A stretch of DNA of 64,000 nucleotides. Source: Lingula anatina (lineage: Eukaryota; Animalia; Brachiopoda). Below the pieces are notes generated by a model. It was not told where the DNA came from. It worked only from the letters and a program-made list of their open reading frames with translations, and searched no databases. Below are positions 1,017 through 47,582 of the stretch, piece after piece. Position 1 is the stretch's first letter. The number at the start of each line of letters is the position of its first letter. A program made the position numbers and the translations under genes. The DNA lies in the NCBI GenBank assembly GCA_051362555.1, contig CM120640.1, forward strand, positions 16,306,001-16,370,000, read 5' to 3'.

Positions 1017-1106
1017 TATATAAAGGGGCACGCCGGCAGAGCATGCTGTAATTTTGCAGTGACACCCTGACGTACGGGAGATAGGGGGATTCCCACGAAG
1101 ATACAG
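1017..1106 (+). promoter_or_regulatory. Putative TATA box and first non-coding exon of the neuropeptide gene
   Basis: TATATAAAG at 1017-1025 in a GC-richer patch, a CRE-like TGACGTA near 1068, and a good donor CAG|GTACGT at 1106/1107. A second possible 5'UTR exon lies at about 2304-2366. Confidence 0.45.
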
Positions 1107-2427
1107 GTACGTGGATGGTTTACAGTTTTCTGTGTGACCTTAGTGTGATCTCTCGTTTATGACTGAAAACAATTGCGGTTCTATTTGCCTCAGTGTTTTA
1201 AGCTTAAAAAACATATACATTCTCTACGGTGATTTCTTGATTCTCTTAATGAGACATAAGATGTAGGGTTGGAAGGAATTTGTCTGCGATTTATCAGCAA
1301 GTAAACCAAAACAAATATCAGTGATTTTTTTTTAAAAATCAGACAATGAAAAATTACGTGGAAAACTAACAATTTACCTTTGGCAGTAACCTTTGATAAC
1401 GAATATATATTTTGTGTGAATAAAAATAGGCTCGTTTTTTAGAAAAAGAAATCTGTGAAAAAACGTCAGCTAAAAAAATTGTTCAAACCAGGACAATAAA
1501 TATTATCATTTAGATACAGTATTTAATCCCCCAATAGTTTGGGTCAAAAAGTACACGTCCATTATATTGATATCAAATTTTGACCATTTGAAAAGTTGAC
1601 AGTGGATTATTAAGGGTTGTGTTGGAGACAAAACAAACCAATCACTTCGGAGATATTGAACCTTATGGGAACCAAACCGTTGGATAAAGCCGGTAACGTG
1701 ATTGCCTTATTTGTAGAAGACACATATTACAAAGTCAGAACATAATGACACTTAAAACTGGAGGACTTAAACTGCTTTCAGCGAAGGACTAAGACATTAT
1801 CAATTGCTGAATGGAGATGTCCTCTCATGTCGTAATCCCAGTCGGAGTGGATTAACAGCTGGTTTCTAAGTGTCTTACATGCCGCAATAGCAACGGCGAC
1901 GTGGAAAGACAATATTAAGTCAAGGACCGCTGAGATTCGAGTGAGTCAGCGACTCTGCTGACGTAGGGAGCTCGGGTTGAGATGTGATTATTGGTCCGCG
2001 ACGCGGGTGCATTGAACGGTAGTTCAAGTACCCTTTTGACCAGACGTACCTGTATCACGAGGTACAGTGCTGACACGTGGATGTTTGTGTGCACGCGATT
2101 TTTAATCAATGGTCGTTAAGGATGTCAATTTCTGTGACACCCACGTGAAAATAAAGATTAATATATATCACAAAAATAAAGAGGCACTCATACACCTGTA
2201 AGCGGCTGATTTCGGTAAGAGTGTGCAGACAAATCTCTTTCTATTCATGAAAATCACAGATATCGATACACCTCTTAGAAGTTTAAGTTTCTTGCCATTC
2301 CAGGTTGATTTCAGTTTGTAAATATACAGTAAACGGAGACCATATGACGGTAACTAGACTCTGATAGTGAGTAAGACCTGTCACACAACATTTAAACGTA
2401 AAGGTTAATTTTTTTCAGCTTGTAAAT

Positions 2428-5251
2428 ATGCAGAAAACTCACAGTTGTGCGGCGCTCCTTCTTGCCACACTAGCGTTTATGATGTTGGCGTCCACCTCAG
2501 CAAAGAGCATTTCCAGCGTTCAACACTCCAGGTGGGACAAAATTTGTACAATTTTATTTCAAACTTGTATTTAACAATCATTTACTTGGCTTTTTTCTAG
2601 ATATCCTAAGTCCTACATCTCTCGTGCAAGAGCTCTTTCTATCTTTGATAAACATTTGTACACCGAAATTAGGAAGTCATAAGTTTTAACACTATTGCTA
2701 TTTTAAAGCGTGAATACATAGTTTAGAATGAACAAATGCCATATGCTTTAAATCAAACATTTCAATATCCCAGTCAAAGTATTGCATCCCGGCAAACAAT
2801 TAGCGGTGGTTTTGTAAATAATCTGTTTGTTGCTTTTAAAGGCTTTCAGAAGGCCAATTGTACATTTCAAAGGAACTTGTTGCATGCTTTTGTCACCTTG
2901 TATCTGTCGTTTGTCATTTTTTATTGTAATACATATATATATGTGTGTGTATGCCAAATCTATAACAATATTGTGCTGTTTCATGAAACCATCTAGCAAG
3001 GAATGCTTGCTTGTTTTAGCTCTTTATTCTTAATTCTATAACTGTCAAACGGATGTTCTGGCATCATCTTCCAAGAATAAGAATTTAAAAGGAAAGTAAG
3101 CAAAAAAAAAGTCATTTAAAAAAAATAGAGCAAGCATTTAAATTTGAACTTTGTGAATTCTTTCATTATAATTGATATTTAATCAATCAACCAATCAAAT
3201 GGCCACTCAATCACCCTGAGATGATGATTTATACGTGTTGGGTAATTTGAGCATGTCGTCATGGGTGTATATGGTGTTGGTTTATGTTGTATATTTGTTG
3301 TAGACATCGGGTAAGGCGGCAGGGAGGAGATATGACAATAGCCGATCGTTTGGCGTGGCTTTCACAGAACATTAGACAACCAGTCGGCTGTTCAGACGCG
3401 GCCTGTGGATTTGTCGATACAGATAAAATGTAGGTATATGTGTGTGTCGGTATAGTTATAGTGAGACTTGTGTGTCTGGGTATTTTTCTTGCATGTCACG
3501 GGTTGAGGCTACAACACAGTATATGACTTCCGTGAAATTTAGTAATACGGTGGTTCAAAACCTAATGTGCGGTGCGTCATGCACGGTTGTGGAGCTGAGC
3601 GTGACTGCGGCGTGTGGAGGAGCATGACGAACCAACGCAGTACCATCGGCTGAAAGTGTGATGATTATTGCATGCCAAGGTCATGGGGAATGTGGTTACG
3701 GCGCGATGCATGGCAGGGGCATGGGGAATTTGGTTACGGCGAGGTGCATGACAGGGGCATGGGTAGGAGCATGGGTAGCCAGGGGAACTGTTTCTTGAAA
3801 GAACTTTTAAGCCTGCAAATTTCGCTAAACTATTAGACCGAAAATTTAGTTTATTTTGTCCCACGATGAATCAGGAGAAGTACAATTCAATGGAATATTG
3901 CACCTGTTTTACAATAAGGAAACGCGCGCGCGCGCGCGTCTAATATCTCCCTTAATTCGTACTATATTAAAGAGGGATACTATGGAATTATCTTGAAATG
4001 AATTTCAAATAGACCATTTTTTCTGCCTAAACGTTTAGACTAATTTGAAGGCTTGAGTTCAGAGAAACTGGTCCGTCGATAGATAGTTAGAACGTCTTCT
4101 CGTGACTGATGACATTTTGGTTCTTACACACGGCAGCCGAGTTAAGCGACAGTGGGCGGACGCGCGTATGGCTGAACTGTTGCCGCTGATGGGCCTTATG
4201 CGAGGGGGACCGGGGTCCGTTGCCCACGGCATGGTAGACCCCGCAGTGAAGTATGTGCTGGTATTTACATTACACACATGCTCGCGCGCACGTGGGCACA
4301 CACGTGCATGCATGCACACACATGTAATCTTTTAAGTATCTAAAATTGAATATGTCATATATTCTGTTTTGACGATATTTGAAATTTCTTAAAATGAGTT
4401 AAAGGAATTCAGTATGAAGAGTCTATTTCTCATGAAGGGATCATTTACTGAATGGAAACCTAAGCAGTGTTCCAATTGAAAAACAAACAAAAACAACCTA
4501 CGTAAAATCTCTATCTATTTGCTGAGACATTCACAAATATTGCCATAAATTCTTTTAGTGATCATGAAACAGGATAATCAGTGTTTGATTGTTTACCAGC
4601 GTCGCAAATGACTCTGCAAATGAGGAACTGGTAATAAATTTGCTCTAAAAGTGATCGAGTTGCAATGCAAAAAAAATTATCCAATCGTGCGTCATCGTAA
4701 AGCTGTTAGCACAATGTGTCAAGTTAAGATTATGTTACTGTTTTTATTCTCTTTTAATTGGGAATCAATTTACTGGAAAGGGGATGATATAATGAAACCA
4801 AATGACAAACCCATGTTGGTCTAGGGTTACATTTGAGATACGTCAGATTAAGTGTGTGACTTATTGAAGATACTAAGCGGTTTTGTTGGAATGTAAATAT
4901 TTTAAAAAATATGTACCTAGATACTCACATCGAATCTGATTGAGTTTTTTTTTCTTTGAAGGTTATATTAAAATGGTTTTAATTGTCTTAATAACTATTA
5001 AAGCTATCAATAGGTCCATAATAGTTTATTTTCATTGTAATATTCTATGTAATAAACTACCTTAACCACTAAGTAAGAATACGTGAAACGACTCCATTGA
5101 TTAATAGTTTGCCGTTTTCATTTAAAGTGGCAAGAGGAAGAGGGAGAGCACAGACTATTACTACAACAACGGCGAAAGCAGTTTTAGTGACCTCAGGAAA
5201 GAACGGATACTCCAAAGACTGACACAGCTATTAATAGAAGGCAATCAATAG
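2428..5251 (+). CDS. PXXXamide / invertebrate parathyroid-hormone-like (iPTH) neuropeptide precursor with two alternative peptide exons
   Basis: Exon 2428-2531 encodes MQKTHSCAALLLATLAFMMLASTSAKSISSVQHS (signal peptide). Cassette A is 3304-3429 and cassette B is 4137-4250. The last coding exon 5128-5251 encodes GKRKRESTDYYYNNGESSFSDLRKERILQRLTQLLIEGNQ*. All introns are GT-AG and phase 2. Precursors are 117 aa (A) and 113 aa (B). Confidence 0.8.
3304..3429 (+). CDS. Neuropeptide cassette exon A (Cys-bridged peptide)
   Basis: ttgtag|A...AT|gtaggt, 126 nt: (R)HRVRR-QGGDMTIADRLAWLSQNIRQPVGCSDAACGFVDTDK(I). Confidence 0.8.
4137..4250 (+). CDS. Neuropeptide cassette exon B (PXXXamide peptide)
   Basis: cggcag|C...AA|gtatgt, 114 nt: (S)RVKR-QWADARMAELLPLMGLMRGGPGSVAHGMVDPAV(N); contained in ORF 4102..4335. 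Confidence 0.8.
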
Positions 5252-8200
5252 GTAAGGGGCCCTCGAAACGTTCTTCATAATCAAGTAGATAATATTACGG
5301 ACTTTCATGTTATACAACTGAAACTGCGAGTGGCAGTGGCCCCTTTAAGGACATGCTAAACCAACACTATAAAAAGTTGTTGAAATAATCAGAAGGTTTA
5401 AGTGTGCTGGCGGTAGCCGTTTCTGTAAATCCTCGTTGACTGCTTATAAATTAATACAGCTTATAAAGTTGACGTTGTTAGGGCCCAAATTCAGACTTGA
5501 ACTTAACTACATTTATTTTCCATTTTGCAAATTTACTTGTAGCGCCGCGACCAATACAAGCAGATCAAATAATTGGTCGGAAGAAGCGGCAAACGTCAAC
5601 AGATCGGACTGTAAAATGCATTGGCATAATAATGTCTATATGAAGTTTAGTTTTGAACAGATGGTGGTAGATCAATCAAGTAATGATTTCTTTTCCATTT
5701 GTCGTTTGCAGGAGTGGAGGTGCTACTTAAACAATGGCGAAGTGTCAGCCAAACGATATCTACTACAGCTGACGAAATAAAAACAAGAATCTCAGACGAC
5801 TGCTCCTTTCTACTTAAAAAATGAAGTGAAAAAAAAAAAAAAAAAGATTAGAGATGGTTAATAAATGAGACACTGAGTCATAAGTTGATCATCCAAACAA
5901 ACATAAAGCAAAACGCTTCATTTTGAAGGGGAGAGGAAATGATTACGTGTTCAGCCACAGTAAGAAATTACATTGACGCTGGTATACCTGATAATTCCAC
6001 TCATTGGACTTTTTAAAAGCGCAGTGGCATGATATTATTTATTATTATTTATTTTCTATTTATTTTACGACTATTAATAAAGGATGAAAATAAAAAATTG
6101 AAGAAACTTGCCAAATGAAAAAATTAGGTTGTTTTTATGATAACATCAAAGTTGGTTGAATGCAGGCTTAAGTATATTAAGGTGCTCATACATACAAAAA
6201 CAATGGAAATTAAATGGTGTTAAATTATGCTTCTTGCTACAAGCCTTAAATTTGGAGATTTATTTATTTATTTATTTAAATAGATTTAATGGTTTCGCTG
6301 TAAAAGGCCATAGATTTGTTATTTTATTTATTTATTGTTATTATTATTTTTGCAATAGAAAGCAGTGAAATTGTACACAAAACACAAAACACGTGTGCAA
6401 GCAATTATGGACAAGAACTAACCTCAAGTGAACATTCACTGGGCCTCATATGACTATATTATTCCACACAGACAATATTTGCTGCAATGAAAATGATATT
6501 CGATATACATCATTAAACAATGATAAACTACATGTATTTGAGTAACGCCAGATCTTGGAACAATGAAGCCTTGATAGGTCTTTGTCATACAAATTACGCA
6601 CTGTGCCTTTTAATTGCTGTATCTATATAGTTTCATTTAACGTTGAAATAATCAATAATTGAAAGGAAATCTGACAAAGACCAGCAGCATTTGTTTACTT
6701 TCACGTTTGTACATGCCTTTGATCAAACATCATTTGGCACATTGAAAACATCCGACAGTTTTATGGCTTTGCGTCGTCAGATTTAGTTTACATTAAACAA
6801 AAACGAAAGAATATTAGAAAAATTTTGAAAAAAGTCATTACGCTGTCAGTTGCACGAAAAAAAAAAACTGCAAATCACGCTCTGATAACAGGGGAGTGGT
6901 CAGCCCCATGCTTGGTCATAGGACGGTGATGGCATAGATATTTAAGGAAATATGACATCAGCAAGATTAGCTTGAACCCAGTGCAAGGATTATCACATAA
7001 ATTCTATCTTGTCAAAATATGCCCTTGATACAACATGTACAAGAACGTCAAGTTGATTCAAAATCATGTGAGATTCCATAATCTTAGTTATCAAAAACCA
7101 TTCTGCGACAGTGTTGACTGGTTGGAAATTGGGTGCAATAACTAGTGCATAGTTTGAGATGTAACATCTCGACATCATGAACCAATTATGTCGATTTTAC
7201 GCGGATTTTTGCATTAATCTGTACGAAATAAATAAACCCATTCACAAGCAAGTTCTCTGGAAAAGCAACCATACATAAAAAAAAATTCATATGAATGGTA
7301 AAGGCATCAAAAATATAGAAAGTACTATACGAAAACGAGTTTTAAATGCACGTATATTCAACCTGGTACCCGGGTGTCGGAGGACACTGGAAACTCGGCT
7401 CTCTACTACATGCAATTGGAAACAGCACATGTTTCATTTGAAACTCGGGAGTGAATTCCAGTCATCTTCTTTTGAATATCTAAATGCGTCGCAGGAGTCT
7501 CAGGGCGCTTAATGTTTTTTTTTTCGGAGTCAATAAGTTTAAGTAGACAAAAACCAAATGAAAAGCAATCTAAATCACCTTTGGTAATTCTTTTCCGTAT
7601 AGGAGCCTGAAAAGATTACTTTTGAAAGCTTCTTGTCTGATAACAACACACTTCAAGCCCAAGTGGACTAGTAAAGCCCCAGTTGTAAAATTACTTCTAA
7701 GAAACTGAAAGAGGTATTAGTCATGGTTTTCTTGCTAATAATTATATTTTCACTGATTATGTTAGAGGGTTTCCTGGAATTCTACCAGCCAAAATAATTT
7801 AGACAGCAGACCTTGCAAATATACAAGCAAGGGACGATGGCAGCACAAAAACAAGAGGCAAGGCTAAACTATATGACAATTAAAAAAAGGATTGTACCGG
7901 GTAACTTTGGAGAAAATGTTCGGACTCGGTTTATACTATAAAACACACCATTCATACATGGATCAAGTGTATTTACTATTTACAAATGAGAGTCAATAAG
8001 GGACAATAAGTGTTATTATGCCACACATAGGAATAGACCGCTGAGCAGAGACGCGTACGAGCGAACTGGAGATTGATATTTTAGTATATTTCAAACCATA
8101 CATTTTGGTCTAGTTTGAGCCAAGACAAACCAGTTGTAGTGCACTGAAATGTAGCACTGTCCGTCTCTTAAAATCTCAAAGTTAGGACAAATTTCTGGTT

Positions 8201-19200: not shown

Positions 19201-22200
19201 AAACAGACTGCATTGCCTACTGAAGCTGTATTTTAGTCCCATGTTTCTATCCTGTAAGTTTGAAAACAGTAAGTGACATGATTTTCCTTAAATGGTCATC
19301 ATGGAAGCAGTGCCCAAAATGGGAGTTTCTTCAAATTTTGATGCAATATTACATAATGTTTAACAGCTTAATGACCATCAATTTTTAATTATAAAATATT
19401 TGTATCACAGATATTCAGAAAATGTGACTAGCAAAGGTCTTCAGGCCCATGGAACTTCAAAGTCACGCCTTGATAATGCCAAAATGTAAACAAGACAACA
19501 CTGTTCTGAAATGGGTTTATTTCCATTTTTAACACTTTTTTAACATAAAACAAAATACACATTTTACTGCCATTTTTATATGTCCAACTAAGAAAATTGA
19601 TGAGATGGGAAAAGTATCAATAGAACAGTGTTAAATGTCCAATTTCCTCCATTCTGAGATTCTGAACATAGTGGATGATTGAATCTGACAAACTGCAATG
19701 ATATGAGTTTATTTCCATTTTTGACACTTTATTACACAATACATGATAACAAGTTTACCATGTTTTTTACATAATCAACTAACAATGTTGTAAAGATGCA
19801 GGAAATATCAAACAAACACTTTTAGGCATCTTATTAGTTAAATAATGAGACTGTTAACATGCCTAAGAATTGAATCTGAGGAAATGTGAAAAAACAGTAT
19901 AACTTCTTAAGTAATGGCCCGATTATGCTTATTTTCGAACTCAACCTGCGTTTTAGTAAGATTGACCACTCCTGTGAGTATATTTACAATTGGCCAATCC
20001 GTTTTTTCTTATATTGTGTTATCAGTGTTGCATTTATATTGAAAATAATGAAAAAACAGCATAAACTAGAGGATCAGAGAGGCGATACCGCCTCCAAATA
20101 TTGTACCACCAGCTGGAGCAAGCGCATTCGTATAGACCCCCACATACACAAAATAAGGGACACAGCCAAAAGTTTTGTGCTTGACAAGCTGTAAAAATGC
20201 AATCAACAAGAATTTTTAAACTATTGCAAAAAATATATATGGTGCAATCAAATTTAAATTCTTCGTAAGGTAGGTCAAGGGTCAATTTCAAGGTCACAGT
20301 AAATTGCCAGTATATGACTTGAATCCAGTTTTGGAGATAAAAGGGAAGCAAAATTTGCAAAATTCAGTTCATGGTGAAAAGTAGGTCAAAGGTCAATTTC
20401 AAGGTCACATTTAGATTGCCAGTATATGACTTTCTATTCAAGTTCAATAGTAACTATGGACCTATCTCTGCCAGTTTTGGAGATAAAAGGGAAGCAAAAT
20501 TTGCAAAGTTCAGTTTATGGTGAAAAGTAGGACAAAGGTCAATTTTAATGTCACATTTATCATGCCAGTATATGACTTCCTATTCAAGTTCAATAGTAAC
20601 TACGGACCTATCTCAGCCAGTTTTGGAGATAAAAGGAAAGCAAAATTTGCAAAATTCAGTTCATGGTGTAAAGTAGGTCAAAGGTCAATTTTAAGGTCAC
20701 ATTTAGATTCCCAGTATATGACTTCCTTTTCAAGTTCAATAGTAACTATGGACCTATCTCAGCCAGTTTTGGAGATAAAAGGGAAGCAAAATTTGCAAAA
20801 TTCAGTTCATGGTGTAAAGTAGGTCAAAGGTCAATTTTAAGGTCACATTTAGATTGCCAGTATATGACTTCCTTTTCAAGTTCAATAGTAACTATGGACC
20901 TATCTCTGCCAGTTTTGGAGATAAAAGGGAAGAAAAATTTGCAAAGTTCAGTTCATGGTGAAAAGTAGGTCAAAGGTCAATTTCAAGGTCACATTTAGAT
21001 TGCCAGTATATGACTTCCCATTCAAGTTCAATAGTAACTATGGACCTATCTCTGCCAGTTTTGGAGATATAAGGGACTAGATGTTATAATTTTGGAGTTA
21101 CCATAATGTGCCTTAAATTTCGTACAGAAAAAATTAATTAAAATAAAGAAAATGTCATTTTGGTCAAAATTCTTGAAATAGGAGGTGCTCTGAAGTTTCA
21201 GAAGTTCAAATTTGATGAAATAATGTCATTTTTGAACACAAGTTGTCTGCTTTGCCAAGCCTTATGTTTTATTTTTCCAGAGTTCAAAATTTATTATCCA
21301 TTACCGTACTGCACATTTTGCTTTTACCACCAATATGTACTTTTTGATACAGCGTAACTCGAAAACCGTATGGAATACAAAAAAACCGAGACCACCTCCA
21401 GTGTTGGGCTTTACATGCTCTACAAAATGCAAAAAAGAATGGGTCTCTAGCATTAACGGTTCCCGAATTAGAGACAGTTTTCAGTTTCGGTATCTTATGG
21501 CCGCTACTCCCGTGAAAATGCACCGATTGACCCCAAATTCATGGAGATGAAAGATGACCTGAAGGGTAACACTTTCCAATAATATTATTGGTTAAGTCTG
21601 TGTGGTGTCTGAATAACAGGGCAAAAAAAATTTTTTTCGTAAAAAATTTCATTTTTTTGAAAATTTTGGCCCATTTGACCTTGAAGTAGAGGTCAAAGGT
21701 CAAATCCAAGGATATATTTGAAATCTACACATATGACTTTTGGAAAGCCGTCTATAGAAATTTTTCCCATAACTCCTTCCGTAGGGTAGATAATTAGCAT
21801 TTAATTTTGCCATTTTTAGACAAGGGTGCATTGCAATGAGTGCCACACCCAGACCCCAATACCGACAAAGCCCAAATTTTACGTGGAACGAGTTGAGATT
21901 ATAGGTGACCTAAATCCATGAGATGGGTACGGGGGCCCTTACCGTCTAGGAGGAGAAGCGGTAACGGTAGCCGTCCGGCGGAGCCGGCGGAGCCAACGGA
22001 GCCGGCGGAACGATCCGGACGGGACCGAAACCATGTGTACCGCCAGCGCTAACGCTGGTGGTACAATTACCTAAAAGTGACCCGATCATGCTGATTTTCG
22101 AACTTGACCTGCGTATTATGAAAATTCATCAGTTCTGTAAGTTTCAAGTCAAAAAGTAAAATGGTTTTCCACTTATCGTGTTATCGGTGCTGCATATATG

Positions 22201-25200
22201 CTGAAAAAAGTGAAAAAACAGCATAAATTCCCTAAAAGTGACCCGATCATGCTGATTTTCGAACTCCACCTGCGTATTATGAATATTCATCAGTTCTGTA
22301 AGTTTCAAGTCAAAAGGTAAAATGGTTTTCCACTTATCGTGTTATCGGTGCTGCATATATGCTGAAAAAAGTGAAAAAACAGCATAAATTCCCTAAAAGT
22401 GACCCGATCATGCTGATTTTCGAACTCCACCTGCGTATTATGAATATTCATCAGTTCTGTAAGTTTCAAGTCAAAAGGTAAAATGGTTTTCCACTTATCG
22501 TGTTATCGGTGCTGCATACATGCTGAAAAAAGTGAAAAAACAGCATAAATTCCATAAAAGTAACCCGATCATGCTGATTTTCGAACTTGACCTGCGTATT
22601 ATGAATATTCATCAGTTCTGTAAGTTTCAAGTCAAAAGGTAAAATGGTTTTCCACTTATCGTGTTATCGGTGCTGCATATATGCTGAAAAAAGTGAAAAA
22701 ACAGCATAAATTCCCTAAAAATGACCCGATCATGCTGATTTTCGAACTTGACCTGCGTATTATGAATATTCATCAGTTCTGCAAGTTTCAAGTCAAAAGG
22801 TAAAATGGTTTTCCACTTATCGTGTTATCGGTAAAAGTGCACGGCGACGGCGACGACGGCGACGACAGACGCAGATGATGGCTATATGTACAGACACATC
22901 TGTGTCTGTACATAAAAAGGCTTCTTCACATAATCATTGCAAAACTAAGGTTCAAAAGGAAATATGCATAAATTGGAGACTAAAGTAAATTTCTTCAATT
23001 TGAAAAGAAAAAGTCACCCACAAACTAAGATTTTCATACTTAACCCCCCCAAAAAAACTAATATTCATTAATAAATAATATATAAAAATTAAAACAAATG
23101 AATGGAATTAAAAAACCAATAAAAAAGCTACAAAAGCCCACACAATGCTAAATTATTTTAAATTCTACCACAGTAATTAGCCATTAACAAAACATGATCA
23201 CCACTACAAAATGAAGTAAGTTAACCCTTACACCCCATTCTCATAGATTAGATCGACCTACATTGGATCGACCTAACTCCCTGGGGGTTCACGCTAAATA
23301 GCTGTCAGCCGGGCGGACATGAAAGTTAATTATCCCTTTCTGCTTGTAGTAGGCGGGGACGGACACTTAAGGCGGATTATCTGACAGTAATCTAGTGAGA
23401 CTCCCCGCTGTGATAGATCAATCTAAAAGTTGTGAGAACAGAGCCTTAAACTGAATATTTCCATAGAGTTCTACACTACATACCACCACCATGGCCACAC
23501 AGAAGTTGGGTCTCAGCTGGTAGTCAGCCCACTCCTGGCTGGCACCATGGGAGTCCTTGTACATGCCTCGTTTGTTCACCAGGGAGGGGCGTGGTTCGTA
23601 CTCTGGGACAGGACTGGTGTGGATCCAGAAATATCTCTCAAAACTAGCCTGGATTTTCTTGTCCCAGTCCTTGAAGGTAATGGTCACTTCCTGAGCTGAT
23701 GTGAGAGAAATGTTTCTTCCATTATTCCCTTTTTTATACTTTATAAAACTGGACAGTAGAGTGGACAAAGTTTATATACTATGAACTGGTATAAAAGATA
23801 CAAAATCTATGAATCCAGACTCATATTTGGAAAAGTTACAAGTAAAATTTGATATAAACTGACTCTTTCAAGTAGATAATGAGTCTGATTTCTTCTATTT
23901 AATAGTTCTTTAAATGTTAAAATTAAGTATTGTTAACCAATCAAAAAAATTACATGCAAAGCAGCCTGCATCAACACCATGTAAAACAATTCCAACTGTA
24001 TGTAGTATTCTTACATTTTGTCTTTGCTTTCACTCCACTGTAAGGATAAGCTCCCTCTTCATTCATCCTTATCAACCACCTTAACACCGACTTACTGAGA
24101 CCAATAAGTTCAACAGCTGAGCCATCTCTGTGAAAAAGAAATAATAATAATAAATCTAAAGTATACAAATAGAATAGTGCACAGCAAGAAGTTTAAATTA
24201 TCTGCTTTTAAAAATATACAGCAACCAAACCTAGGGTTGTTTTGATTTACAAAGTTCATTTTTATAGATTTCCCCCTAACACTTTTCCAGCATATCAATA
24301 CAAACATTTAAAAATATTAAAAACATAAATAAATAAAACTAAATTAATATTTGTTTTCACCTTGGAGTGGCAGGTTTTCCTTTATTCCCTGCCCGGTTTG
24401 AGCTGCCCATCTTGTCCATCCAGGTGCCACAGTTGTGGACATTACCTCCAGATATGAACCCTGTCTGCATGTCCACACTGGCCTGGACAGTGAAACCTGA
24501 CCACAAAGGTTAAAGCTATAATATCCTGGGGCCGGTTTCACAAAGCAGTAGTTAGTTAGAACAACTAACTACTGAACTACCTCGCTAACGAGCAAACTTA
24601 GCGATTTTCGAGGGGTGTTTCACGAAGCAGTAGTTAATCGCTAAGGTCAGTCGTAAAGTTCGGTCGCTAGTTCTCTCGTTACTCACCGTAGTCTCGAAAC
24701 CGTCTGCCGTAAGTGGAACTCTTGCGTAAAAGTGTCACGAAAGCACTAACTCTCCAATTTTTGGTGGCTGGAAATGCATAAGAATGTCTGCTTTGAGGTC
24801 GTCGTAAAGGATCTCCACCACCTTTTTGCCGCTCTTTTTGTCACAGCTAGGCGCAACCTCTCGTAAATTGCATCATTGTGTGTATATTCTAATAGATTCT
24901 GCCTTTAATGAAAACGTCGTAGTCTACGTTGCCATCTGGAGGTACGGTTAGCAAGAAAGGTAGCCGCCATATTGGATACAAAGACAAACGACAGACAACG
25001 GTAACTAAGCCACCTTTTTATTTCACTCATTACGCATGCGTACGATGAAACTCTAGAGTTAGCAACTGGTCTGACCAGTCGTTAAATATCCAAGGTAACA
25101 ACGAGACAATAACAAGCGAGAGAACTAGCGATTGCTTCGTGAAACGGCACTCATAACTAGCGATAGGCTAACTACCGATCGCTAACTAACTACTGCTTTG

Positions 25201-28200
25201 TGAAACCGGCCCCAGATTTTAAAATATCCCAGAAGTCATATTTTCTATGTCTGCATATTCTACACAGCTACATAGTTTCCCCAACACAGACTGTGAAAAC
25301 AATTTAAGTACCTGGTGTTGATATTTCCTTCTGAAATGTGCATGGAGACAAGGCTATGTAAGTCACTGTCCAGTTTCATTAGATCTACACTGTTTAATTA
25401 AAAATGGTACAACACATCAAATCCAAGTGCATGGACAATATATATATATATTTGGTGTAAATAAAAAGAGAGATATCCAACCTGCATCTGTCATATCCAT
25501 GTCAAGCTTTGGTCCAGCATTTCTTTCCTTAAATGATATTCCATCAATATGTTTTTGTAGAGCCTCTTGAATGACATCATACAATGGACAATTCTGTAAA
25601 AAGATAAACATATACTATGAAGGCTAATTAGCTCCTCAATTTATATCTCATGGCAAATATTTACACAGAAGAGTATTTTTCTGGTCCCAATGTTAGTTTT
25701 GACTTTAAAGAGGGTGCAGACAAGTCACTGTAATTTTGAAAAACAAACAAAAAAACTTGTGACCCAACAAAAAATTTGTGTACAGATAATTGAAAACATC
25801 TCCTTAAAAATGTATTGCATTGCATATGATACTTACATGTGCTCCAGACTTCTGAGGTTCAGAGTCATCAGTAGGGTACATCCTGGACACAAACTCCTGC
25901 AGAAGTAAGCTCCCGTCTGGCACCATCTTGGTGTAGTCTTTAATAGACTGCATCCACCACCACACCGCATCACGGCAGTTGTAGCGGGCATGAGTCCCAT
26001 CTCCTAGCAGATTAGGGATCAAGCCATGACGCATGCAAGATCCATAAGCAAGAATAAGGTTTCTGAAAATGAAGAAAATAATCTTATTACATGATGTAAA
26101 AATATGGGCAGTTTCGATATGCATGCCCCCCTATTTCCAATAGCACATTAAGTTTTATTACTTTTCAATACCAGTACTTAAATACTGTCCCTGTGCGAAA
26201 TGCCAATATAAATAAAGCCAGGCCAGTCAAATTTTGTCAACTTGTCTAGTTACTGGTCTGTGTTTCCACGTTAAGCCAATAGATTTTTAGACCCTAATGG
26301 CTCAAAGGGCCAGAAACCCAAAATATTTTAGGGACAGAATGCACTACTGTACTGGCAAGAAAAGCTCTGTCACTAAAGCTAAAAAGGTACAATTATGGAG
26401 ACAAAGAAACTATCATGACATACAAAGAAGAAAAAAACTTACGTATTTACAAAAACACATACAGAGTTGATAACTACACTATGCTACACTATATATCACT
26501 ACACAACAACATCACACACCAAAATACACTATACTAGGCCTCTTGCATAAATGACAATATCTATAAAGAAATTCAGACAAAAAAATGTATATATAAAAAT
26601 CAGTACAGACTCTCACCTGGCCACATCATGGCGCCCAGGTATAAGGAGAAGTCCTCTCAGTGCAATGAAGGTATCTCTGCCCCAGTTTCTCCATATACCA
26701 CTGGAAAAGTGAGGAAGACCTGCAATAATAAAGTGGAAAAAATTAAATCAAAATTGTGGTTTGAATTATAAATATGAGAACTTTGCTTGCAAACTATTAG
26801 GAATTTCCATGATACAGGTCTTGACAACCTAATTACATGAATTCTCCAATATGATGAAAAATCCAGTATGAAATTCATATGCACATTTGAAAAATCCACA
26901 AAACAGATTGTGCCTCTGACAGGGACAAATTATCATGGTAGAAGTACTCAGAATTTCACAGTTAGACAACCGGTTGAAAAAAATCCAATAAAACAACATT
27001 ATATAAGAACTCATTCATTTGTTTGAAAGTCAAAACATAGAGTTGTTGGATTAAATCAAAGAATCACCTTGATACTAAAATTAAAATACTTCGTTGCTAT
27101 CTATATCACCTGCAGACAGAGTATCATGGCAGACCTCCTCCTTGTCTTCCCCATCATCAGTCTGTGCATTCTGCACGCTGGTTGTGGTACCTGGGGAGTA
27201 ATCTGGTAGCCTGGCTGTCTTCACATAACCACACATCTGCACAGAGCCCAGGGAGAGGGCCTTCACAAATGTGGACCCCGTCTTGATGAAACTACACAGA
27301 GATAACAATAAGGCTATAGGAGAGTATGTTTTTCATGCCATGGTTATATCTTTCAAAATTGTGGAGTAACTGTTCAAAGACAAGTGAATCCTAATGATAA
27401 AGAGAAGCTCTCTCTAATTTTCCATCAATAAGGATATGCAATTTTAAAGAAACAAATAGATGAGAAAATACATTAAATCTTCCTTTAAAGCCCTTATTTC
27501 ATCATTCACTACATGTAAACAGACTTCAAGTCAAAGTGAAAGTTTACGTTGACATTTGACACCAGGCTGCATCATGGATTATGGAGGAAGTCTGAGTGAG
27601 GATGGCATCAAAGTAGCTAGGGATCAGATAGCGAGGGAGCTTGCTTAATTGTTCAAACACAGCTTCAAACCATTCACCGAGCTGAAATAAAAATGACAAT
27701 TATAAGCACTTAATACTATGCAAATCAAAATTATCAGTAGTTTATTATGCTGTTTGAGTTTTAGGGATTTGACTCTTCAAATAGCGCAATATTATTTTAT
27801 TCATCATTTTCCTTTCGAAGCAGATAATACCATCATGTTAGCACATTTTACTGTTTTACAAATCATAAATTGTAAAAGTAATTTTCAATAATATTATTAC
27901 AAATAATATATAACAATCAAAAATATTTGGTACATAAGAAACTGCATCCCTTAGTACATCTCCATTGTTAATATACTGAATCTGTCTAAGAGCACATTCA
28001 GTACAGCAGACTAACAGCTCCGCGGATCAAATATGCCAACCCACTATAACTAAAAAGCTTGCTGCTTAATTTCCAATTAGACACTGAATAGATTCCCAGC
28101 AGCATTCAAGTGGGTCAGCCATATTTCATCTGCTGACTAGTTAGTACGCCATTCTGAATACGCTCTAACTACCCTGAGTTTCAGAAGTCACGGAGAATTG

Positions 28201-31200
28201 CCTCTATTATCCACAGACCTATGCTATACCAGAAATGAGATCTCACAAGCTACATGAATATTCTATGACCATACCTGTTGAGTACTGGGCTGTGCCTTGA
28301 GCCTGGCAGCTATGTAGCCAGGCAACCAGTCTCCGTCTCTAAGATTACAGCACAGAGGATGGCCCAGATCATTGCTTAAACTGATAGGACCCATCACACT
28401 CATCACACCTGAAACAATGAAGGGAATCCTATGTAAAATATGTTCATTTAACAAATTCATTCAGCTGTTTAAAATCTCAATTAAATCATTAATATAAACC
28501 ATTGACAAAAGCCAAGCCTGTATTAAGCATTTTCAAAGGGGCGTGTGTGGGTTACTTTGTTGAAAAAGTGGACGTCTTTTACCGCCTTAGTTCACCAACT
28601 TTGGAAATGGCATACAACCTAGATCAAATTTTGATTCAGAGTGAACCTTTTCTGCCTAAAGGGTGGTTTGGTCCCGCCCCCCCCCTCCCCCTCCCCAATT
28701 GCCTATGGGCCTGAAGGTTGTCACTGAAAATAACAACTAGAAAAAAAAATACTTTTCATATCATACCTAATAATATTCTAGACCCAGAGCTGACATATAT
28801 TTATCACATTAAATTACAGCGCAGCTATCACTTCATATTTCTTACCCTGTAATCCACAGTACACCAGGCTGCCATATCTGGGCACATTATAGGCGCCAAA
28901 CCCCTTCCCATCATCCCTTTCTTCGTTATCGCAGCGGTATAGCACCCTGTTCAGGTCAGACAGTGTTAACTTGGAGACAATAGAGTGGAAAGGACTGGTC
29001 TCACTGAACTGGCCGTCTTTGATGGGGGGCAGCTGTGAGAAGGTGGTTGCAATGGAGGTGAGGGCTGCTGTGGAGACCGGATCTAGTGCAATCCTGGAAT
29101 GGAAAGAAAAGAAAAGAACTAGATCATGACTTAAAGTCAAATTAAAAGAAGCTTTCAATATATTTATTTACCCCTAGTACACCATATATGGATACTGTAA
29201 GGCTCAACATGTTATCAGCCTAATTACTTAGTCTGTACCAGTGTCTTAAAGAAGACTGATTCAGTTCACGTAAACATGAGCATGCACACACATCACAAAC
29301 AGATACAACCACCATCTACATGTACCTATCCACATACATAATAAGATTCTCACATACCTGAATGCTATAACACTTCCAGGGGGGAAATGGTGGAAATGGA
29401 CCACATTTATGTGGCTGTTCTCCGTGTGTTCTATGTGAACCATCTGGCTCTGATCTGGGGAAACGTCCTCTCGGATGTGGCAGTGGAAATCCGGGAGACC
29501 ATTGATAAACTGTGGGTCCTTCTTGTGAGCGTGGTGCCCTCTATGCTGCAGGTGAGACTCCAGGACCACAGTCTCTATTACACCTGTGAAAATAAATTTG
29601 CTTTGTTGTTTTTGATTTCGATTTTAGAGATTTTGACATAAAAATATCCCATATATGATTTCATATGATATTTATCATCAATTGATGAACCCTACCCTGA
29701 GTGTCAGAGCAATGTAAAAGCTAACTAGCTTAAATATACCTTGTGATGGAGTCGCTTTTACTAGCTCTGACGAACAGCGACAATCTGAGGGCGTTCTTCT
29801 TCAAAATTTTGCCTGGGGCGCTTCCATATTTGGAAGTCACACGTCACAGCTGTGTCCGCCTGGATCCATATTTGGAAGTCATAAGTCTCGTACGTCACAG
29901 GTTTGGCCGCCTGGAGCTGCCTTTCCCGCCTGGCGCTGATGTTATCTCATGCAGACGAGACAAGAAGCAAAGTGCCTGACGAAGTTTGAATTGAAAATAT
30001 CTTGCAGTCGAAGGTCAGTGCCACAATAGAAGCAACATTCTGCTTTAAAAACTGATTTTGGTGTAGCCATTGCGCAGCCCTTATAGTGGTATCGGGCATA
30101 CAGTGTAGCTGTCAAATTTGGCACACGGCAAGCATGGGTATTGCGCACGTGTACATCTCAGGACTAAATGTTCTTTGATAAGCAAAAAATACAAAAACAT
30201 TGGATATATCTTTTCTGTTCGAAGAATATTGTTTATTTTTTCACTTTACATCTTAAATACAGCAAATAAAATTAAATAAAGCAGAATTAAATCTGCTTTA
30301 CATTTCATTTTGGTCTTATGACATTCAACTGCAGATTCACTGCAGAGCCGTTCTATTTGATTGACGCGAGCCTAACATGGCCGCTGTGCACTAGAGCCTG
30401 GTATTGCGACATGGGTTATATATGAAATCAAGATCGAGCTGGCAAAATCGGAATCTAGAACCTAGGGTAATGAACCCCAACCCCAAAAGACTATCAATTA
30501 AGAAAGCAACACAGAAAATAACTGTCACACAAGTTCAGAGCCTTTTGTTAGACTTTGGCATAAATCCTGCAAATTTCATAAGCTTAAAATGTTTACATTG
30601 AATTTTTTCCCTTTTGAAATCAAATTTTATTTAATGATTAGTTCAAACACAAGTGCAAACTAATATCTTTTCATATGCCACCACTAGTCAAAATACTGAT
30701 ATAAAGTTATTTTTAAGCAATTTTTTATAAAGAGAAAACCAAGCAATCCCCAGGATGGAAAATGTAATGAAAAGTCCTTTACATCTCTTAGAGTTATAAT
30801 TTTTAATTTCATAATAGTAGAGTCCAACTTTTATTTGAATTTGTTTTTTTTTAATAAATTTGAATATTCTTCTATCAAAGATACATTTGTATACACATTA
30901 CAGGGCTGATACTGCATTATAATAATGGAATATCACACTGAACCAAAAGCAATTTAATGTTATTTTTGGGTATAATAATGAGTAAACATTCAGGTGGACT
31001 CATGCATGAAAGGCTGGTGGGGCAGGCCACTCACAAACCATGTTACCTAAATGTCCCTCTAAAACAATTGTCTCAATTCTACCTATAAAATAAAAAGAAA
31101 AATTCCACTGTTTCATAACTCATTATTTCTACACAATAGCACCAGGTCAAATATTAGGTTGTTTTAGAAAGCTAAAAGGCATTTTTCCAATCAAATTTCA

Positions 31201-34200
31201 TCATGGCAAATGCCAATGATAGAAAGTGGATCAATAAAATGTTTATGGTTTGTTTAGTCATAGCCATTGTTTCTGTTTTGCAGCTGGGCCTGTATATTCT
31301 TGGATCCGAGTGCTAGATGGCTAAAAAGATTTTGGCATTGACAGCTACCTGCAAAGGAAAGTATTAATTAACCAACATGTAATGTGTAGGGGATATTAAA
31401 TAACCCACCTGCAATGTGTAGAGGAGGTACATAACCAGTGTCTAGACTGTGAGGATGTTTGAAGGCTGTCCTGGCCACTAACACCACAGACATGTGATTG
31501 TGTGGGTTATGTCTGGTCACAGCCACAGTGTCATAGTCTCTCTGGTCTACAAATACCTGCAGCAAGAAATGGAACATTTCAATGAAAATAACATCTGTTA
31601 TTGACTACCCTGTGCTTCAGTTTTTTTACCTTTAAATCTCTATATGTGGAAAAGTAAGGAAAATGAAGAAGTGGTTCTATTTCTGACCTTCAACTCTAAG
31701 CTTTTATGAACTTAAATGATATATCTCATATATATTACTATTCATACATATATAAATTAGATTAATTCAGCTTTAGCATCACATTATAACTGATATGCTC
31801 TGATGTTATAAGAGATTTTAAATAACATATGGAATGCACACAGAACAGAACACAGGACAGAGAATGGAATGGTACATACTTGGTTAAACCCTTTCTTTCC
31901 TAGTTCAAAGTGCAGCCTGTTGAGAGCTCTTTTTCCTGCAACAATTCCATTGCACATATTGATGGTAGCGTGGCACACATGGGTCTGGTCTGTCCAAGAA
32001 GCATATGGCCGACCTTCCTCTACTACATGAATCTGTGATGAGATGATCAATGAAAGTAGCATGTCATCACATCAAGTCAAAATATATGTATGTACTGAGT
32101 ATTTCAAATTTTTTAAACACCTCGATTTTTCTAATATCTTCCTTTTCCAACAATCATTTTTTAGACACAAAAATAGTTTATGATATCAAGCAACCAATTT
32201 TTCCCAAATGAAGGAACATAGCAAACTCCCTTTTTTTTTTTTTTTTTGGGGGGGGGGGGGGGGGAATAGATCATTAATTTATGTTGTTCAAATTTATTGA
32301 ATTAACACCATGAGTAACAACTGCCACATATATTAACAATACTGTGTTATTCACTTTAATGTGGTATGCCCCTACCCTCTATTATAGACACATTTTCCAC
32401 AAAACCAAATAACCGTCAATTTATCTAAAGACATATCTGCGAATATCTTGTGTAAAATAAATCTGCAGCCCTGGTAGAGGGTAGTATGCCCCTTTAGCAT
32501 ATCAGTATTTGTTTACTATGCTGCACAAATGTAATATAGTGAATTAAAAATTTTGAACAGTTATATGTCTGTTAATGTCATTTATTACTGCTTTTTTCTT
32601 TATGATGTTTACACCATGCTATGATGATATTAAGTATCAACTGTCGCTAACAATACTTTTTATTTAACTCATTTGCAAAATGGACTCATAGAAATTGTGG
32701 GAACTGAGTCTTGTGCAATCTTATTGAAAGCAACTACAAGTTATTATATTTCAACATCCATAACTTACATGGTGAGGCACCAGTTCATCATATCCCCTAT
32801 TACTTCCAGTGGCACAGCATGCCATGGACACCAGAGCTGCTGTGGGCAGCATATCATACACTGAACGTCTCTACAATATACAACATATCAAATAAAATTA
32901 AAACATATTAAAATAATAGACAGAGAGACAGACAGACAGACACACACGTACAACATAAGCATGTATTTCATCAAGATATATTGTTTTGTTACACGTGTGT
33001 CACCCTACTATATTACCTGAGGCTCTTGTGGAGACATCATTTGTCATATTACATATAACTGCTGAATTACCTGCACTGGTGACATATCACCATGTGTCAC
33101 ACAACATATTACTGTGCCACATTACCTGTACTGGGGACATATCATGTGTCATATTACATATTACTGTGCCACATAGCCTGTACTGGGGACATATCATGTG
33201 TCACATAACATATTACTGTGCCACATAGCCTGTACTGGGGACATATCATCATGTATGTATCATGTTACATATTACTATGCCATATTACCTGTACTGGGGA
33301 CATATCATCATGTATGTATCATGTTACATATTACTATGCCATATTACCTGTACTGGGGACATATCATCATGTATGTATCATGTTACATATTACTATGCCA
33401 TATTACCTGTACTGGGGACATATCATCATGTATGTATCATGTTACATATTACTATGCCATATTACCTGCACTGGAGACATATTATCGTGTGTGAGATCAT
33501 AGAAGAGGGCATGTGCCACAGCAGGCACTAAAGGTCTGACTGCAGGCTTCATGAAAGCCCCCACTGGTTCTCCTCCATAACGATACACCAGGCGGCCTTC
33601 CTCGTGGGAGTCCCATGCACTCTGTGCCTCTGAAAGAAAATTGAAACCTTGACAAATCATGTCAGACCTCCATTTCTTTAACTTCCTCAAAATATTTAAT
33701 TTAAATTGGATTTATTTTTTTCCTTTTTTTTTTTTTTTTGAAGTGAAGATGTTTTCTGTATGGTGTTTGTCTAAGCTCTTTAATCATTCAATTTAGTCTG
33801 GGAGATTAGCACTGGCCCCATGCAGAATGCCAGTTGAATTGAAGCCCCACCTGTAAATTTTGTAAATGCGTTTAAGTTCTCTCCACTTTTGTGTAAATAA
33901 CTTCAATTATACCAGTCTTACCTCTGATGAGAGAGTTAATGCCCAGGTGATTCATGAAGATATTATCTGTATGTTCACTCCTTGTGAACAACTCTGCCAC
34001 CACATAAAGATCAGGACGAATCTTCCTGGCAGCATCCAACATATACTGAAAAAAATGAATAAGACATTTATAAACTAACATGTGAAAGTAATGATTGTAT
34101 TAAAGCAATTAAAACTTTTAGGTACTTGAAAATCTTGAGACATTCTGAACCATTAATACATGGCACTATGATTTATGGATCAGAAAGTTAATCTCCTTCT

Positions 34201-37200
34201 TAATCTTCTGATATTTTCTGATTTTTCAAATGTTTTTTTTCATGCATGGTCAGATACATAACCCAACCGGCAGGCCATGAATTTTTTCTAACTCGTCTAA
34301 AAATGTTCCCTTTATCTGACTTCTACATGTATCTCTACATAATTGGATTCTCTCCAATACGAACAAGTTTGCCACGAAACCATCTGGTTTAAATACTTGA
34401 AAGATTTAACTCTGAAAGCTATATGGTAATTGTCTAGTTTACACAAGTGAAATGTTTCTTTTAGTTTTTGAATGTATATTGACAATACTAACTTCTGCTA
34501 CATGGAGTGGTGTGCTATGACAATTGTCTAGTCTAACAGCGTGGAAGATTTCTACAGTCTGAACTGTGTACTGGCGCATATGATCCCACAGAAATGGACA
34601 GTCCTCATATTTTTCTCCATATCTTAACTTGACACTGTCTCCCCACACTATGAGCTCTCTTCTTAGGTATACATTAGATCCTGTAACAAAATGCAAAATG
34701 CAGTGTTTTTTAAGTATTCAGAATGGTTATCAAAATATATCTTTAACAATTTAACAAATTCAGGAAACAGGACACAAAAATGTAATAAAATTTAAATGAA
34801 AAAATACTAATCAAAAGCCTTTACCTGGCTCAGCAAAGTTCCTGAGAGGATCATCACCCATAACCCAGCCATTGTGTGCAAACATCACATTTGCCTTGTC
34901 AGTGTGCATCAGCTGTTCTTCCTTCTCTAGGGTGAATTCTGGTCCAGGGGGAGGCAAGAAGTAACTGAAACATCAAAGAATAACAATCAGTGCACATTAC
35001 CGTCACAAAAAGCAAGGTGGTAATGATCTTTTTTTAACTGCCAGTTTGCGCAAGATATCTTTCCATCTTTTGTTAATTTTTTTTACATTATGAATGGTGA
35101 AGAGTATGTTTTAATGTGTACATTTAGTTCCCCATCTCTTGTATGAATTCTGAATAAAAAAGGGACAAAACTGCTAATAAGTCTGTCAGAGTAAATCTAC
35201 TGACATAATAACTTTCAAGTGGATCAAGTGAGGTAGGTATATGATAAAGGTATCTTATTTTTAATAGAATGATAAGTTAATGACATATAAACTGTTTTTT
35301 AGTTTAAATTTTCCATTTTTGATTGAAATTGGTCAATTTTCCTCATAAAAATTAACACTAAAAATTTAAAATATAGGATAGGGTAAACTTAGGAGACAAA
35401 GGGCAAACTGCAGACATTTCCTTGAAAAAATTTGTTGGACATATAAAGGACTAATGCATAATGTATTTCTGTAGTAATAACTGTCATTTTCATTAACTGC
35501 AATGTTTTTCAATCAGTGTCTCGAGTACCATACAGTACTGTGCACTCTTATCTGATTCTGAGATACACGTGATAATAAAAGTTGTATGTCTTGAGGTCAA
35601 CCATAAATCTACGTAGTCATGATCTTCAAAACCACAGACGTGAACTTGCTGACATCATTGAAGTTATTAACTTGTATGCAATGCAATGGCACATGAACAT
35701 ACACACCACACACCCCCTTACATATAAACCACAGGCTCATGATCCTTGAAATATAAAAAGAAAAGAAAGAAATATTGTTTTTAAAAACTTTGAAAATAAA
35801 ATACATTTTTTAAATAAGTGAGACATTTTCTCTTTGTTAAAAAGTAAAAGTCATAATAAGCCCTTTTTAATATTCAATATGTATGCAATTTATATTGTAC
35901 CTGAACATAAGAGGCTGCTTTCTGGTTACCTTGTCATACTTGGGCCCTCCATCTTGAAGAAACCTATACCTGAATAACAAAAAGTAGGATGAATAACTAG
36001 CTTTTTAATATACAACTATCATTAAAAATGCTCAATATCATCTTTCTCAACAAAAATGATGCTCTTGAAATGAAAATCAAGACAAGCAAGAAATCTAAAT
36101 TCAAATGTGGTGCATTAAAAATAGTAATGTAATTTACAAACAGAATTATTTTTACAAAACATACGCAGTTATTAACATTTTATGCAACTTTTTATTTGTG
36201 TTTTATTTCATTATCTTTGTAATGAGCTGTATTAATGTATTTGCAGTACATACATTTATTAAAAGAAAGGAAGTGATTGTTCAGATACACTTCATAAATA
36301 AACACTTATACCTGATGTTGGCAAGAAAGTTTGTGACAGCCTGCTGTAGATGACCATGAATCTCATCGACTTTCTCCTGATTAAGTTCTTCTAATTTCAC
36401 TCGTAAATCTTCACAGCACAGCCGGATCCTTTCATCTCTCGTACGGATACCAGGTCTGGGAAAACAATGACACTTATAAAAGGTACACGCAACACTTGGT
36501 TAAAATTTAGATGTTTTGAATATCATGTAATTTTTTAGGATGAATTCAGTTTGTGGTCAACAACTTAGTAAGTACTATATTCATCATGCATATTTAAAAT
36601 AAGATTTTCATAAAATGAGTAAATGAATAAATAAATAAAACATTAGAAGATATATCTATGTTTTGGTAAATAAAAAGCGGTCTCACTTGTCCACATTAAA
36701 TAGTTTCATGGCTATAGCCATATCCACTGTACTCCCTAATCTCTTGAACTGAGGATCCTGGACAATTTGTAAATCCCCTTTGGTGTGGTAAAGGTCTGTG
36801 TATAATCCTTCTGGAAACAGCAACAAAAAAAATATGACAAATAACTTGTAAATACAGATACGAAACATCATAATTCATATACAAATGTTTTAACTAGCAG
36901 CGTGACAATGTGCAACATGTTTGTTACTTTATTACTGTAAAAAAACTATAGAAAATATCTGACTCATTTAGAAAATATGCCATTATCCTAATAAGAACAT
37001 ATGGTTTTATTAATTTTGACACTTTTTGTGTTAAATCACACAATATGACTAAACTATTGTTTTTCTAGTACAATGGAAAGTTCGTGTTAATAATTTTTTT
37101 TACCTCCTAACTGACTTTTGAAAGATTTAATAACCTGGTCCACATCTACAGTGTAGAATTCATGCAATTTGTACTTAGGCAGCAGCTCATCATTCAAGTA

Positions 37201-43800: not shown

Positions 43801-44584
43801 GTCCTAACATTTTTTAGAAGGAAAAAAGAGCCCTGAAAGACTCCCTTGAAGCTGACAATGCATTGATTGCTCGTTCATCCTTGGGTGTTTCTTTGGTGCC
43901 TGAAAAGGAAGAAGACGTGAAACTGGCTGGACTTATGAAATATGCATCAGCTAAATGTAAGTTCATTTACGACTAATTTGTCATTGAAGTTGTCATGATG
44001 GCATTTAGTGTTTTCCCGGACACAACTTAATTTGGTGAAATTTGATGCAGAAATGTAATATATTCCTGTGATATGTAACTTTAATGCATTAACAGTGTCT
44101 TGTGAAAATATTACAGTCTTCAGGAAAGGAACAAATTTAAATAGATTATAAAATCGTGTCTCTATGTCAAAACCTATAGATCATAATGCCTAAAATCTTC
44201 TTGCTGTACTCTACTCTAAATTATAACTGACTTCAAACAGTATTTGGAATCTGATTCACCTCAACTTATGATGGGTCTCTTTCAGCTTATGATGAAAAGC
44301 AACAAGAAAAAAGACAACAGATAGAATCCAGACCTCTTTTCCAGTCAAAAACGGAAGAAAAATTGAAGAAGAACAAAGCTTTGCAAATTTTACATTCCAA
44401 AGGGAAACTAGGACATCAAGAAAGTCCATTTTCCTTGAATTCTGTGACTATCAGTCCTTTAACTGGTATTGTTAAACAGAAAAATAAGGGTGAGAGTAAG
44501 AGCCGTACTGCTTCAAAAGAGACAGTTATAAACAATAACAAGGCAGCAAAGCTGTCAAATGTACAGACAAAAAACAGAAAATAA
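40804..44584 (+). CDS. YJU2B: Splicing factor YJU2B / CCDC130 (CWC16 family); C-terminus replaced by element-derived sequence
   Basis: ATG|gtgagg at 40804-40806. Exons: 41894-42030 (GERKGTNHYYPPDFDP), 42409-42583 (FEMPYNIWCDGC..MGVRYNAEK..CHLC), 42876-42960, 43487-43658 (DAMFKLEH), ~43819-43957 and 44286-44584. Confidence 0.93.
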
Positions 44585-45104
44585 AGATGCAAAAAAGGTC
44601 ATTTTGTTAATTTTGATGCAATAATAAATAATGCTTATAATAGCACTGTCAGTCAACACTGAATTTTATAATCATGCACAACAGGTAAAATGGTCAATAA
44701 CATGAGCGGACCCAGAGATATTCTCTGACAGTATTCCAAAGTATCTATTTTGATCCATCCTCCATTTTGATGGTCTTCCAACAGAAGAAAAAATAGATAC
44801 CAGGCAATATAAACTTAATAACCTGACTGTCTTCCGGAAGTCCCAGAAGATGGTCTCAATCTAACCTTTCAATAAGATTACAGTTTCAATGAGAGTTCAA
44901 ATTCACATGATGTAAGTCTCAATATTTGAAAAATGATGACAGTGCATAAAATAATATTACATAAGTAACATAATGTTTAAAGACTTAAAAAACAATACAA
45001 CTGCTTATGTGGAAAAACAGAAATGTCAGAGTCTCAGGCGGATGAGAGTTTAAAGTCACAAATGCAAGTGTTTGAGAAAAAATTATAAAGGAAAACATAA
45101 CAAA

Positions 45105-45290
45105 ACTAGAAAAGCACTCCGAGAGTGCAGACCTCTGCCAAGGTAGCAATTGTTGATTATTATTGATTTTTGTCCTCTTTGGCCCACTTCTGACAGTTCC
45201 TGAAAATTTCAGCAAAATCGGTCCATAACTTTTTGAGATATGTTGATGACAAACAGGGGTGAAAATATAACCTCCTTGGCAGAGGTAAAT
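45105..45290 (-). mobile_element. Mini Helentron-like family C (~185 bp)
   Basis: actagaaaaGCACTCcgaGAGTGC hairpin with subTIR acctctgccaagg; far end acctccttggcagaggt. Confidence 0.7.
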
Positions 45291-47475: not shown

Positions 47476-47519
47476 ATAATTCCAATGAAGCTGCTATTCA
47501 AACTTTTAATCTTTCAGTT

Positions 47520-47521
<2 letters not shown>

Positions 47522-47577
<56 letters not shown>
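47522..47577. repeat. (TA)n microsatellite
   Basis: Perfect dinucleotide run. Confidence 0.95.

Positions 47578-47582
<5 letters not shown>

Follow-up and report, generated by a model that had tools for sequence, protein, structure and literature searches.

Can one neuropeptide gene supply two different hormones by exchanging a single exon for another? The question is raised by a locus of the brachiopod Lingula anatina, which we analyzed within a stretch of 64,000 nucleotides (hereafter the window; assembly GCA_051362555.1, contig CM120640.1). A preliminary description of this DNA had proposed that mutually exclusive exons place either a cyclic or a linear PTH-like peptide in front of a shared amidation site. 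Our analysis makes it likely that the gene holds two frame-preserving cassettes, either of which can be spliced to a shared exon to yield a predicted amidated peptide, probably looped (cassette A) or linear (cassette B), that would act on Cluster B class-B GPCRs.

Exon structure and transcripts

All exons of the gene lie on the forward strand. A non-coding first exon (1061..1106; its 5' end is approximate and taken from the sequence) is preceded by a TATA-like TATATAAA at ~1017-1024 and followed by exon E2 (2419..2531), whose coding part starts at the ATG (2428), spans 104 nucleotides to the exon end at 2531 and leaves off in phase 2. E2 encodes a short spacer and a predicted signal peptide, assigned by eye from its hydrophobic core. 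A script run on the window finds cassette A at 3304..3429 (126 nt) and cassette B at 4137..4250 (114 nt), separated by an intron of 707 nt (3430..4136); both are flanked by AG and GT, are multiples of three, run from phase 2 to phase 2 and are open. The shared exon C (5128..5251) begins with one base, the last of the codon for the final peptide residue, and continues with the amide-donor Gly in Gly-Lys-Arg-Lys-Arg, an acidic spacer, a Leu-rich tail and a stop codon at 5249-5251. The 3' UTR exon (5712..6095) has an approximate end, with read depth reaching into the bin 6052-6235, and contains AATAAA signals at 5776, 5860, 6076 and 6089.

Translation of E2-A-C gives a product of 117 amino acids, in which a basic cleavage site is followed by a predicted mature peptide of 37 residues with a CxxxxC motif. 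E2-B-C encodes 113 amino acids, with a 34-residue peptide after the basic site that has no Cys and in which Pro-X-X-X precedes the Gly. The joined product E2-A-B-C (155 amino acids) is also in frame; here peptide A abuts the basic site of B and has no Gly. The arrangement of two phase-2/phase-2 exons between a signal-peptide exon and a Gly-dibasic exon, the lengths and Cys content of the two peptides and the loss of the amide donor from A upon joining all agree with the preliminary description. Its statement that the last peptide residue and the Gly both come from exon C holds for the Gly; exon C supplies just the third base of the codon for the last residue.

Four of the nine RNA runs under the species label (X1, X4, X7 and X8) were used, each read in part (6 to 26 in 100), and they gave 68, 6, 1 and 2 reads. 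With a threshold of at least three reads with two starts, we called the joints 1106-2419 (5 reads, from X1), 2531-3304 (E2 to A, 11 + 4 reads), 3429-5128 (A to C, 14 + 1 reads) and 5251-5712 (4 + 2 reads), all with GT..AG borders, so that 15 reads enter cassette A and 15 leave it. Among the junctions that the preliminary description had singled out for checking, 2531-3304 and 3429-5128 are thus present; 2531-4137, 4250-5128 and 3429-4137 were not seen in the four runs. No joint leads into or out of exon B in these partly read runs, and three of them (X1, X4 and X8) have no depth over B, while X7 has a single read close to B that fits in part. Isoform A is present and B is skipped in the four sampled runs. 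None of the 15 reads leaving A goes to B, in runs that lack B altogether, and given this count the share of B could reach roughly a fifth by the rule of three. X1 shows low depth in the A-B intron, a little of it following exon A. The X1 depth over 4948-5127, in the intron ahead of exon C, exceeds an exon-edge effect and likely stems from pre-mRNA or intron retention.

We accept the use of exon B because of a published transcript and a Glottidia orthologue, and not because of our own reads. The available supplement of PMC8557429 (Thiel et al. 2021) contains three L. anatina precursors, comp131389_c0_seq2, seq3 and seq4, within its QSGamide/iPTH group, from which seq1 is absent. Seq2 is B-only, seq3 is A-only and seq4 contains A plus retained intron; none of the three joins A to B. 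The same supplement lists a B-type precursor from Glottidia that closely resembles Lingula B. By eye, the L. anatina sequences match our translations save at residue 22, where the published difference corresponds to a C>T change at 2492 found in 17/17 X1 reads and 0/4 X4 reads (Ser to Phe, within the signal peptide). The change, which is also that of the published transcripts, is taken as an allele and not as RNA editing. Both single-cassette transcripts hence exist, A in our reads and in print and B in print, which bears out the claim of one gene with two alternative peptides on a common amidation site.

Retention of the A-B intron, as in seq4, brings an in-frame stop directly past the A donor, where a UG-rich tract follows, and a stop right after A is also present in one Phoronis transcript. 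We considered a regulated short form ending at this stop and set it aside as weakly evidenced: a phase-2 GTAG or GTAA donor makes an in-frame stop by itself.

Peptide family and origin of the cassettes

A phmmer search with exon A against 1.84 billion representative sequences returned four matches. Two are multi-unit mollusc precursors (E values 5.5e-07 and 1.4e-04), namely gene models from Octopus vulgaris and Batillaria attramentaria with tandem Cys-type and linear units; the matches P0002 and P0004 are unrelated long repeat proteins, which we set aside as chance. The best alignments of exon A are with the Cys units, at scores of 90 and 83; that of exon B is with the Batillaria linear unit, at 83. 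None of 2000 shuffles attained these values. Across all comparisons of mollusc units with A or B, 9 of 10 exon-unit pairs were unmatched in 2000 shuffles, far above the A-B comparison; the remaining pair, exon A with a linear unit, was equaled by 9. A word-index search of longer proteins gave three candidates for exon A and one for exon B, none of them scoring, and is uninformative for 40-residue queries. Pfam returned no family for the four coding pieces of the gene, and the ESM Atlas no usable match to exon A.

Peptide B has the layout of PXXXamide/iPTH precursors as given in PMC7224569: a signal peptide (by eye), a basic cleavage site, Gly followed by basic residues, and a C-terminal extension. 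It carries a Pro at position -4 before the amide (D-P-x-x-x, then Gly), and its N-terminal D-x-R-x-A-E-L motif and its HG-x-x-DP motif are found by motif scan, in the Batillaria alignment and, by eye, against the supplement of PMC8398477. Ala precedes the Asp of the N-terminal motif, where Ser is common in insects. Peptide A begins with Gln after its basic site and has CxxxxCG-x-x-D near its C-terminus, as in QSamide/QSGamide peptides, and by eye resembles Cragi-QSamide3; with no Pro among its last residues it does not qualify as a PXXXamide, and we class it as a QSamide. The PXXXamide/iPTH pattern had initially been assigned to both peptides: the family assignment stands, on the phmmer matches, the unit alignments and the filing of these Lingula sequences under QSGamide/iPTH in the PMC8557429 supplement, and the PXXXamide ending applies to B and not to A. 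We identify the gene as the one for the QSGamide/iPTH (QSamide/PXXXamide) precursor of Lingula anatina, with A of the QSamide and B of the PXXXamide/iPTH type.

Family, Lingula transcripts and splice arrangement are already in print, the last as the oyster switch. The preliminary description left open whether such an arrangement had been described in molluscs, and it has: the accessible text of PMC8398477 describes an oyster QSamide3/PXXXamide gene from which differential splicing yields either a QSamide or a PXXXamide, as well as joined forms whose first peptide is '-like' and lacks the amide, and it reports mature oyster peptides detected by mass spectrometry. The main text of PMC8557429, as available, treats the orthology of the family, with no account of exon structure or splicing of the Lingula gene found there, and in 2021 held receptor pairing to be unproven in lophotrochozoans. 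The PXXXamide family was not recovered in the accessible part of PMC6425005, and splicing goes unmentioned in the main text of a tick preprint (10.64898/2026.06.22.733765). Among the matches listed, openly accessible literature yielded no exon-level account in brachiopods, no lophotrochozoan receptor assay for the family and no link of Rbfox to it; nor did openly accessible literature yield mass-spectrometric evidence for the Lingula peptides.

The two cassettes resemble each other weakly. Their local alignment scores 32, a value reached by 10 of 2000 shuffles, and the peptides have in common an N-terminal acidic and Leu pattern and a C-terminal G-x-x-D motif. Such a likeness, with each exon nearer to its relatives than to the other, is what an old exon duplication would be expected to leave, and A and B likely derive from a duplicated peptide exon. 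Two further precursors in the PMC8557429 supplement bear on the ancestral type: in Novocrania a single unit has both the Cys pair and the ending D-P-x-x, whereas the Baseodiscus precursor joins a diverged Cys unit to a linear one.

We scanned the whole window on both strands for open exons in phase 2 that measure 75-180 nt and carry R-x-[KR]-R near their start. The four candidates are A, B, a shorter version of B with a poor donor, and an Arg-rich low-complexity stretch at 22.8 kb; the scan found no third cassette and no paralogous gene within the window. Elsewhere in the window, two near-identical ADP/ATP carrier genes stand head to head (53085-54782, minus strand; 58312-59979, plus strand), likely a recent inverted duplication; each matches an annotated L. 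anatina protein, one at 100% and the other at 99%. The exon at 59269-59979 is 100% identical over its length to an L. anatina protein, with other matches at or below 87%, which marks the DNA as that of a brachiopod and not of a mollusc. A multi-exon glycogen debranching enzyme gene occupies ~23400-38850 on the minus strand (exon 37450-38010 corresponds to Pfam hDGE_amylase), a Saf4/Yju2-family (CCDC130-like) splicing-factor gene lies at ~42340-44590 on the plus strand (one exon matches PF04502), and 61840-62124 on the minus strand is an exon of a triose-phosphate-transporter/SLC35E-like gene (PF03151). An element of ~0.5 kb is duplicated 2.2 kb apart (44985-45504 and 47106-47731), with near-identical frames and repeats. 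Dispersed tandem repeats have units of 161 nt (22065-22832 and 50414-51356, adjoining short GC-rich microsatellites) or 146 nt (20325-21076 and 62946-63997), families that may be MITE- or Helitron-associated.

Choice between the cassettes

Regulated splicing is the most likely means by which cells take up A or B, and the choice would be set by tissue or stage and not physically enforced. By standard neuropeptide biochemistry, the basic sites would then be cleaved by convertases, and the common Gly would amidate whichever unit comes last. A pyroGlu, a disulfide in A and recognition by PTH-like (Cluster B) receptors are predicted. A rare joined A+B form may also arise and would give unamidated A together with amidated B, as in oyster and Phoronis.

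A candidate basis for the choice is a cluster of (T)GCATG motifs between the cassettes, on which putative Rbfox-type proteins may favor A and repress B. The A-B intron contains TGCATG at 3490, 3669, 3707 and 3745; the first lies 61 nt past the A donor, and the other three are inside a 38-nt tandem repeat (3669-3763). Two overlapping copies (4305..4314, plus strand) begin 55 nt past the B donor. Seven of the 31 plus-strand sites in the window fall into the three introns around the cassettes, which make up 3.7% of its length; the A-B intron alone has 4 against 0.35 expected, a number not reached in 1000 shuffles, and TGCATG ranks first among 180 hexamers of the same composition in introns 2-4. 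After merging of repeats and overlaps, 4 of 28 sites remain in the 3.7% (P ~0.02, for an enrichment found after the fact). According to the available text of PMC2777236, an exon is repressed when Fox-1-family proteins bind upstream of it and enhanced when they bind downstream; mutually exclusive pairs are among their targets, and calcitonin exon 4 is repressed by them. By this positional rule the sites between A and B would favor A and repress B, consistent with our reads; by the same rule the motifs at +55 past B would favor B, and the motifs alone make no clean switch.

Would the choice matter to the receiving cell? Peptides A and B may be redundant ligands of one receptor, with the splice choice altering little beyond stability or potency. 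This reading has real weight, if somewhat short of probable: it is in keeping with the acidic/Leu pattern and the G-x-x-D motif common to both peptides and with the precursors in the PMC8557429 supplement, where most nemerteans have the linear type only and Novocrania the Cys type only. Against it, brachiopods, phoronids, molluscs and annelids have all retained the two types in the available sources, and lophotrochozoans possess many Cluster B receptors (PMC7200681, accessible text), which leaves room for selectivity.

The mutual exclusivity claimed in the preliminary description stands in part. Each exon is used alone, A by the reads and B by the published transcript; that the cassettes strictly exclude each other, so that the joined form is never made in Lingula, is not established, and we find it doubtful. 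The contrast of 0 A-B with 15 A-C joints and the absence of a joined form from the three transcripts in the supplement speak for it, but the runs analyzed show no B at all and cannot test exclusion. None of the enforcing mechanisms considered (short intron, frameshift with NMD, competing RNA pairing) fits the pair: at 707 nt the intron greatly exceeds a length at which steric exclusion could operate, A+B is in frame and would escape removal by NMD, and there is no strong competing pairing, the longest arms among the matches listed measuring 26 nt at 73%. A perfect inverted pair of 12 nt occurs at 2532/3853, and the matches listed (25 of 63 inverted pairs) include nothing convincing as a docking/selector pairing. 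Joined transcripts are moreover known from the oyster and, in the PMC8557429 supplement, from Phoronis australis (next to A-only and B-only forms) and P. ijimai, and the Lottia precursor has its units joined in tandem (supplement alignment of PMC8398477).

These joined forms could point to independent optional exons, which in some cells would give a tandem two-peptide precursor whose unamidated A is an inactive or modulatory by-product. The tandem units in Lottia, Octopus and Batillaria and the mature oyster peptides seen by mass spectrometry add to this case; yet the joined Lingula form is absent from our reads and from the published transcripts examined, and the models from Octopus and Batillaria, being predicted automatically, may do no more than string cassettes together. 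We hold this explanation to be rather unlikely. The lack of reads on exon B in four partly read runs might suggest a relic, silent or in decay; this is extremely improbable, being largely refuted by its intact frame and splice sites and by the L. anatina and Glottidia B transcripts in the supplement.

Comparison with known systems

The beetle Tribolium castaneum has an iPTH precursor built like that of peptide B, in which a signal peptide and a basic site precede a linear peptide, with a Gly-basic amidation signal and a C-terminal extension after it, and its mildly conserved Pro at -4 recurs in peptide B (PMC7224569, accessible text). It differs in giving a single linear peptide; the string 'splic' is absent from the main text of that paper. 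Activation of receptors is demonstrated in the beetle (iPTHR1 and iPTHR2, with EC50 values of 63 and 413 nM), whereas the Lingula peptides are ligands predicted from sequence. The gene nevertheless defines two exact candidate ligands for lophotrochozoan PTH-like receptors.

CALCA, the calcitonin/CGRP gene, resembles the Lingula gene in that one gene gives two class-B GPCR ligands (predicted ones in Lingula) by alternative processing. In CALCA the alternatives are 3' terminal exons, together with polyadenylation; the two peptides have separate amidation sites, and both carry an N-terminal disulfide ring. The Lingula gene, by contrast, has internal cassettes and a common amidation site, and a ring is predicted in A only, near the C-terminus. 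The calcitonin/CGRP analogy of the preliminary description is thus a loose one, and we claim no homology between the two genes; a possible mechanistic parallel lies in the Rbfox motifs, since Fox-1-family proteins act on CALCA through UGCAUG (PMC2777236, available text) and similar motifs cluster in the Lingula gene.

The closest counterpart is the Crassostrea gigas gene, which likewise sets either a QSamide with a Cys pair or a PXXXamide of linear type before a common Gly-basic tail and in which the residues at the junctions vary in the way that split codons would predict (PMC8398477, accessible part). In the oyster there are three peptide units, one QS and two PXXX, along with two more QSamide genes, compared with two units and no paralogue in the Lingula window, and its joined forms have no equivalent in Lingula reads or transcripts. 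Phoronis australis, known here from transcripts alone, matches Lingula in its isoforms i1-i3, with two units in the same order and A-only, B-only and stop-after-A forms, and differs by its joined A+B transcript. The same exon logic in a brachiopod suggests that the looped/linear choice is old. A more far-reaching proposal would make this choice an ancestral lophotrochozoan device of brachiopods, phoronids and molluscs, in which an Rbfox-type code picks the amidated ligand and each of the two ligands addresses Cluster B receptors of its own; invertebrates would then have an independently arisen equivalent of the calcitonin/CGRP switch under Rbfox control. We regard this as improbable in its full extent; if true, splicing and not gene duplication would divide the roles of class-B GPCR ligands in invertebrates.
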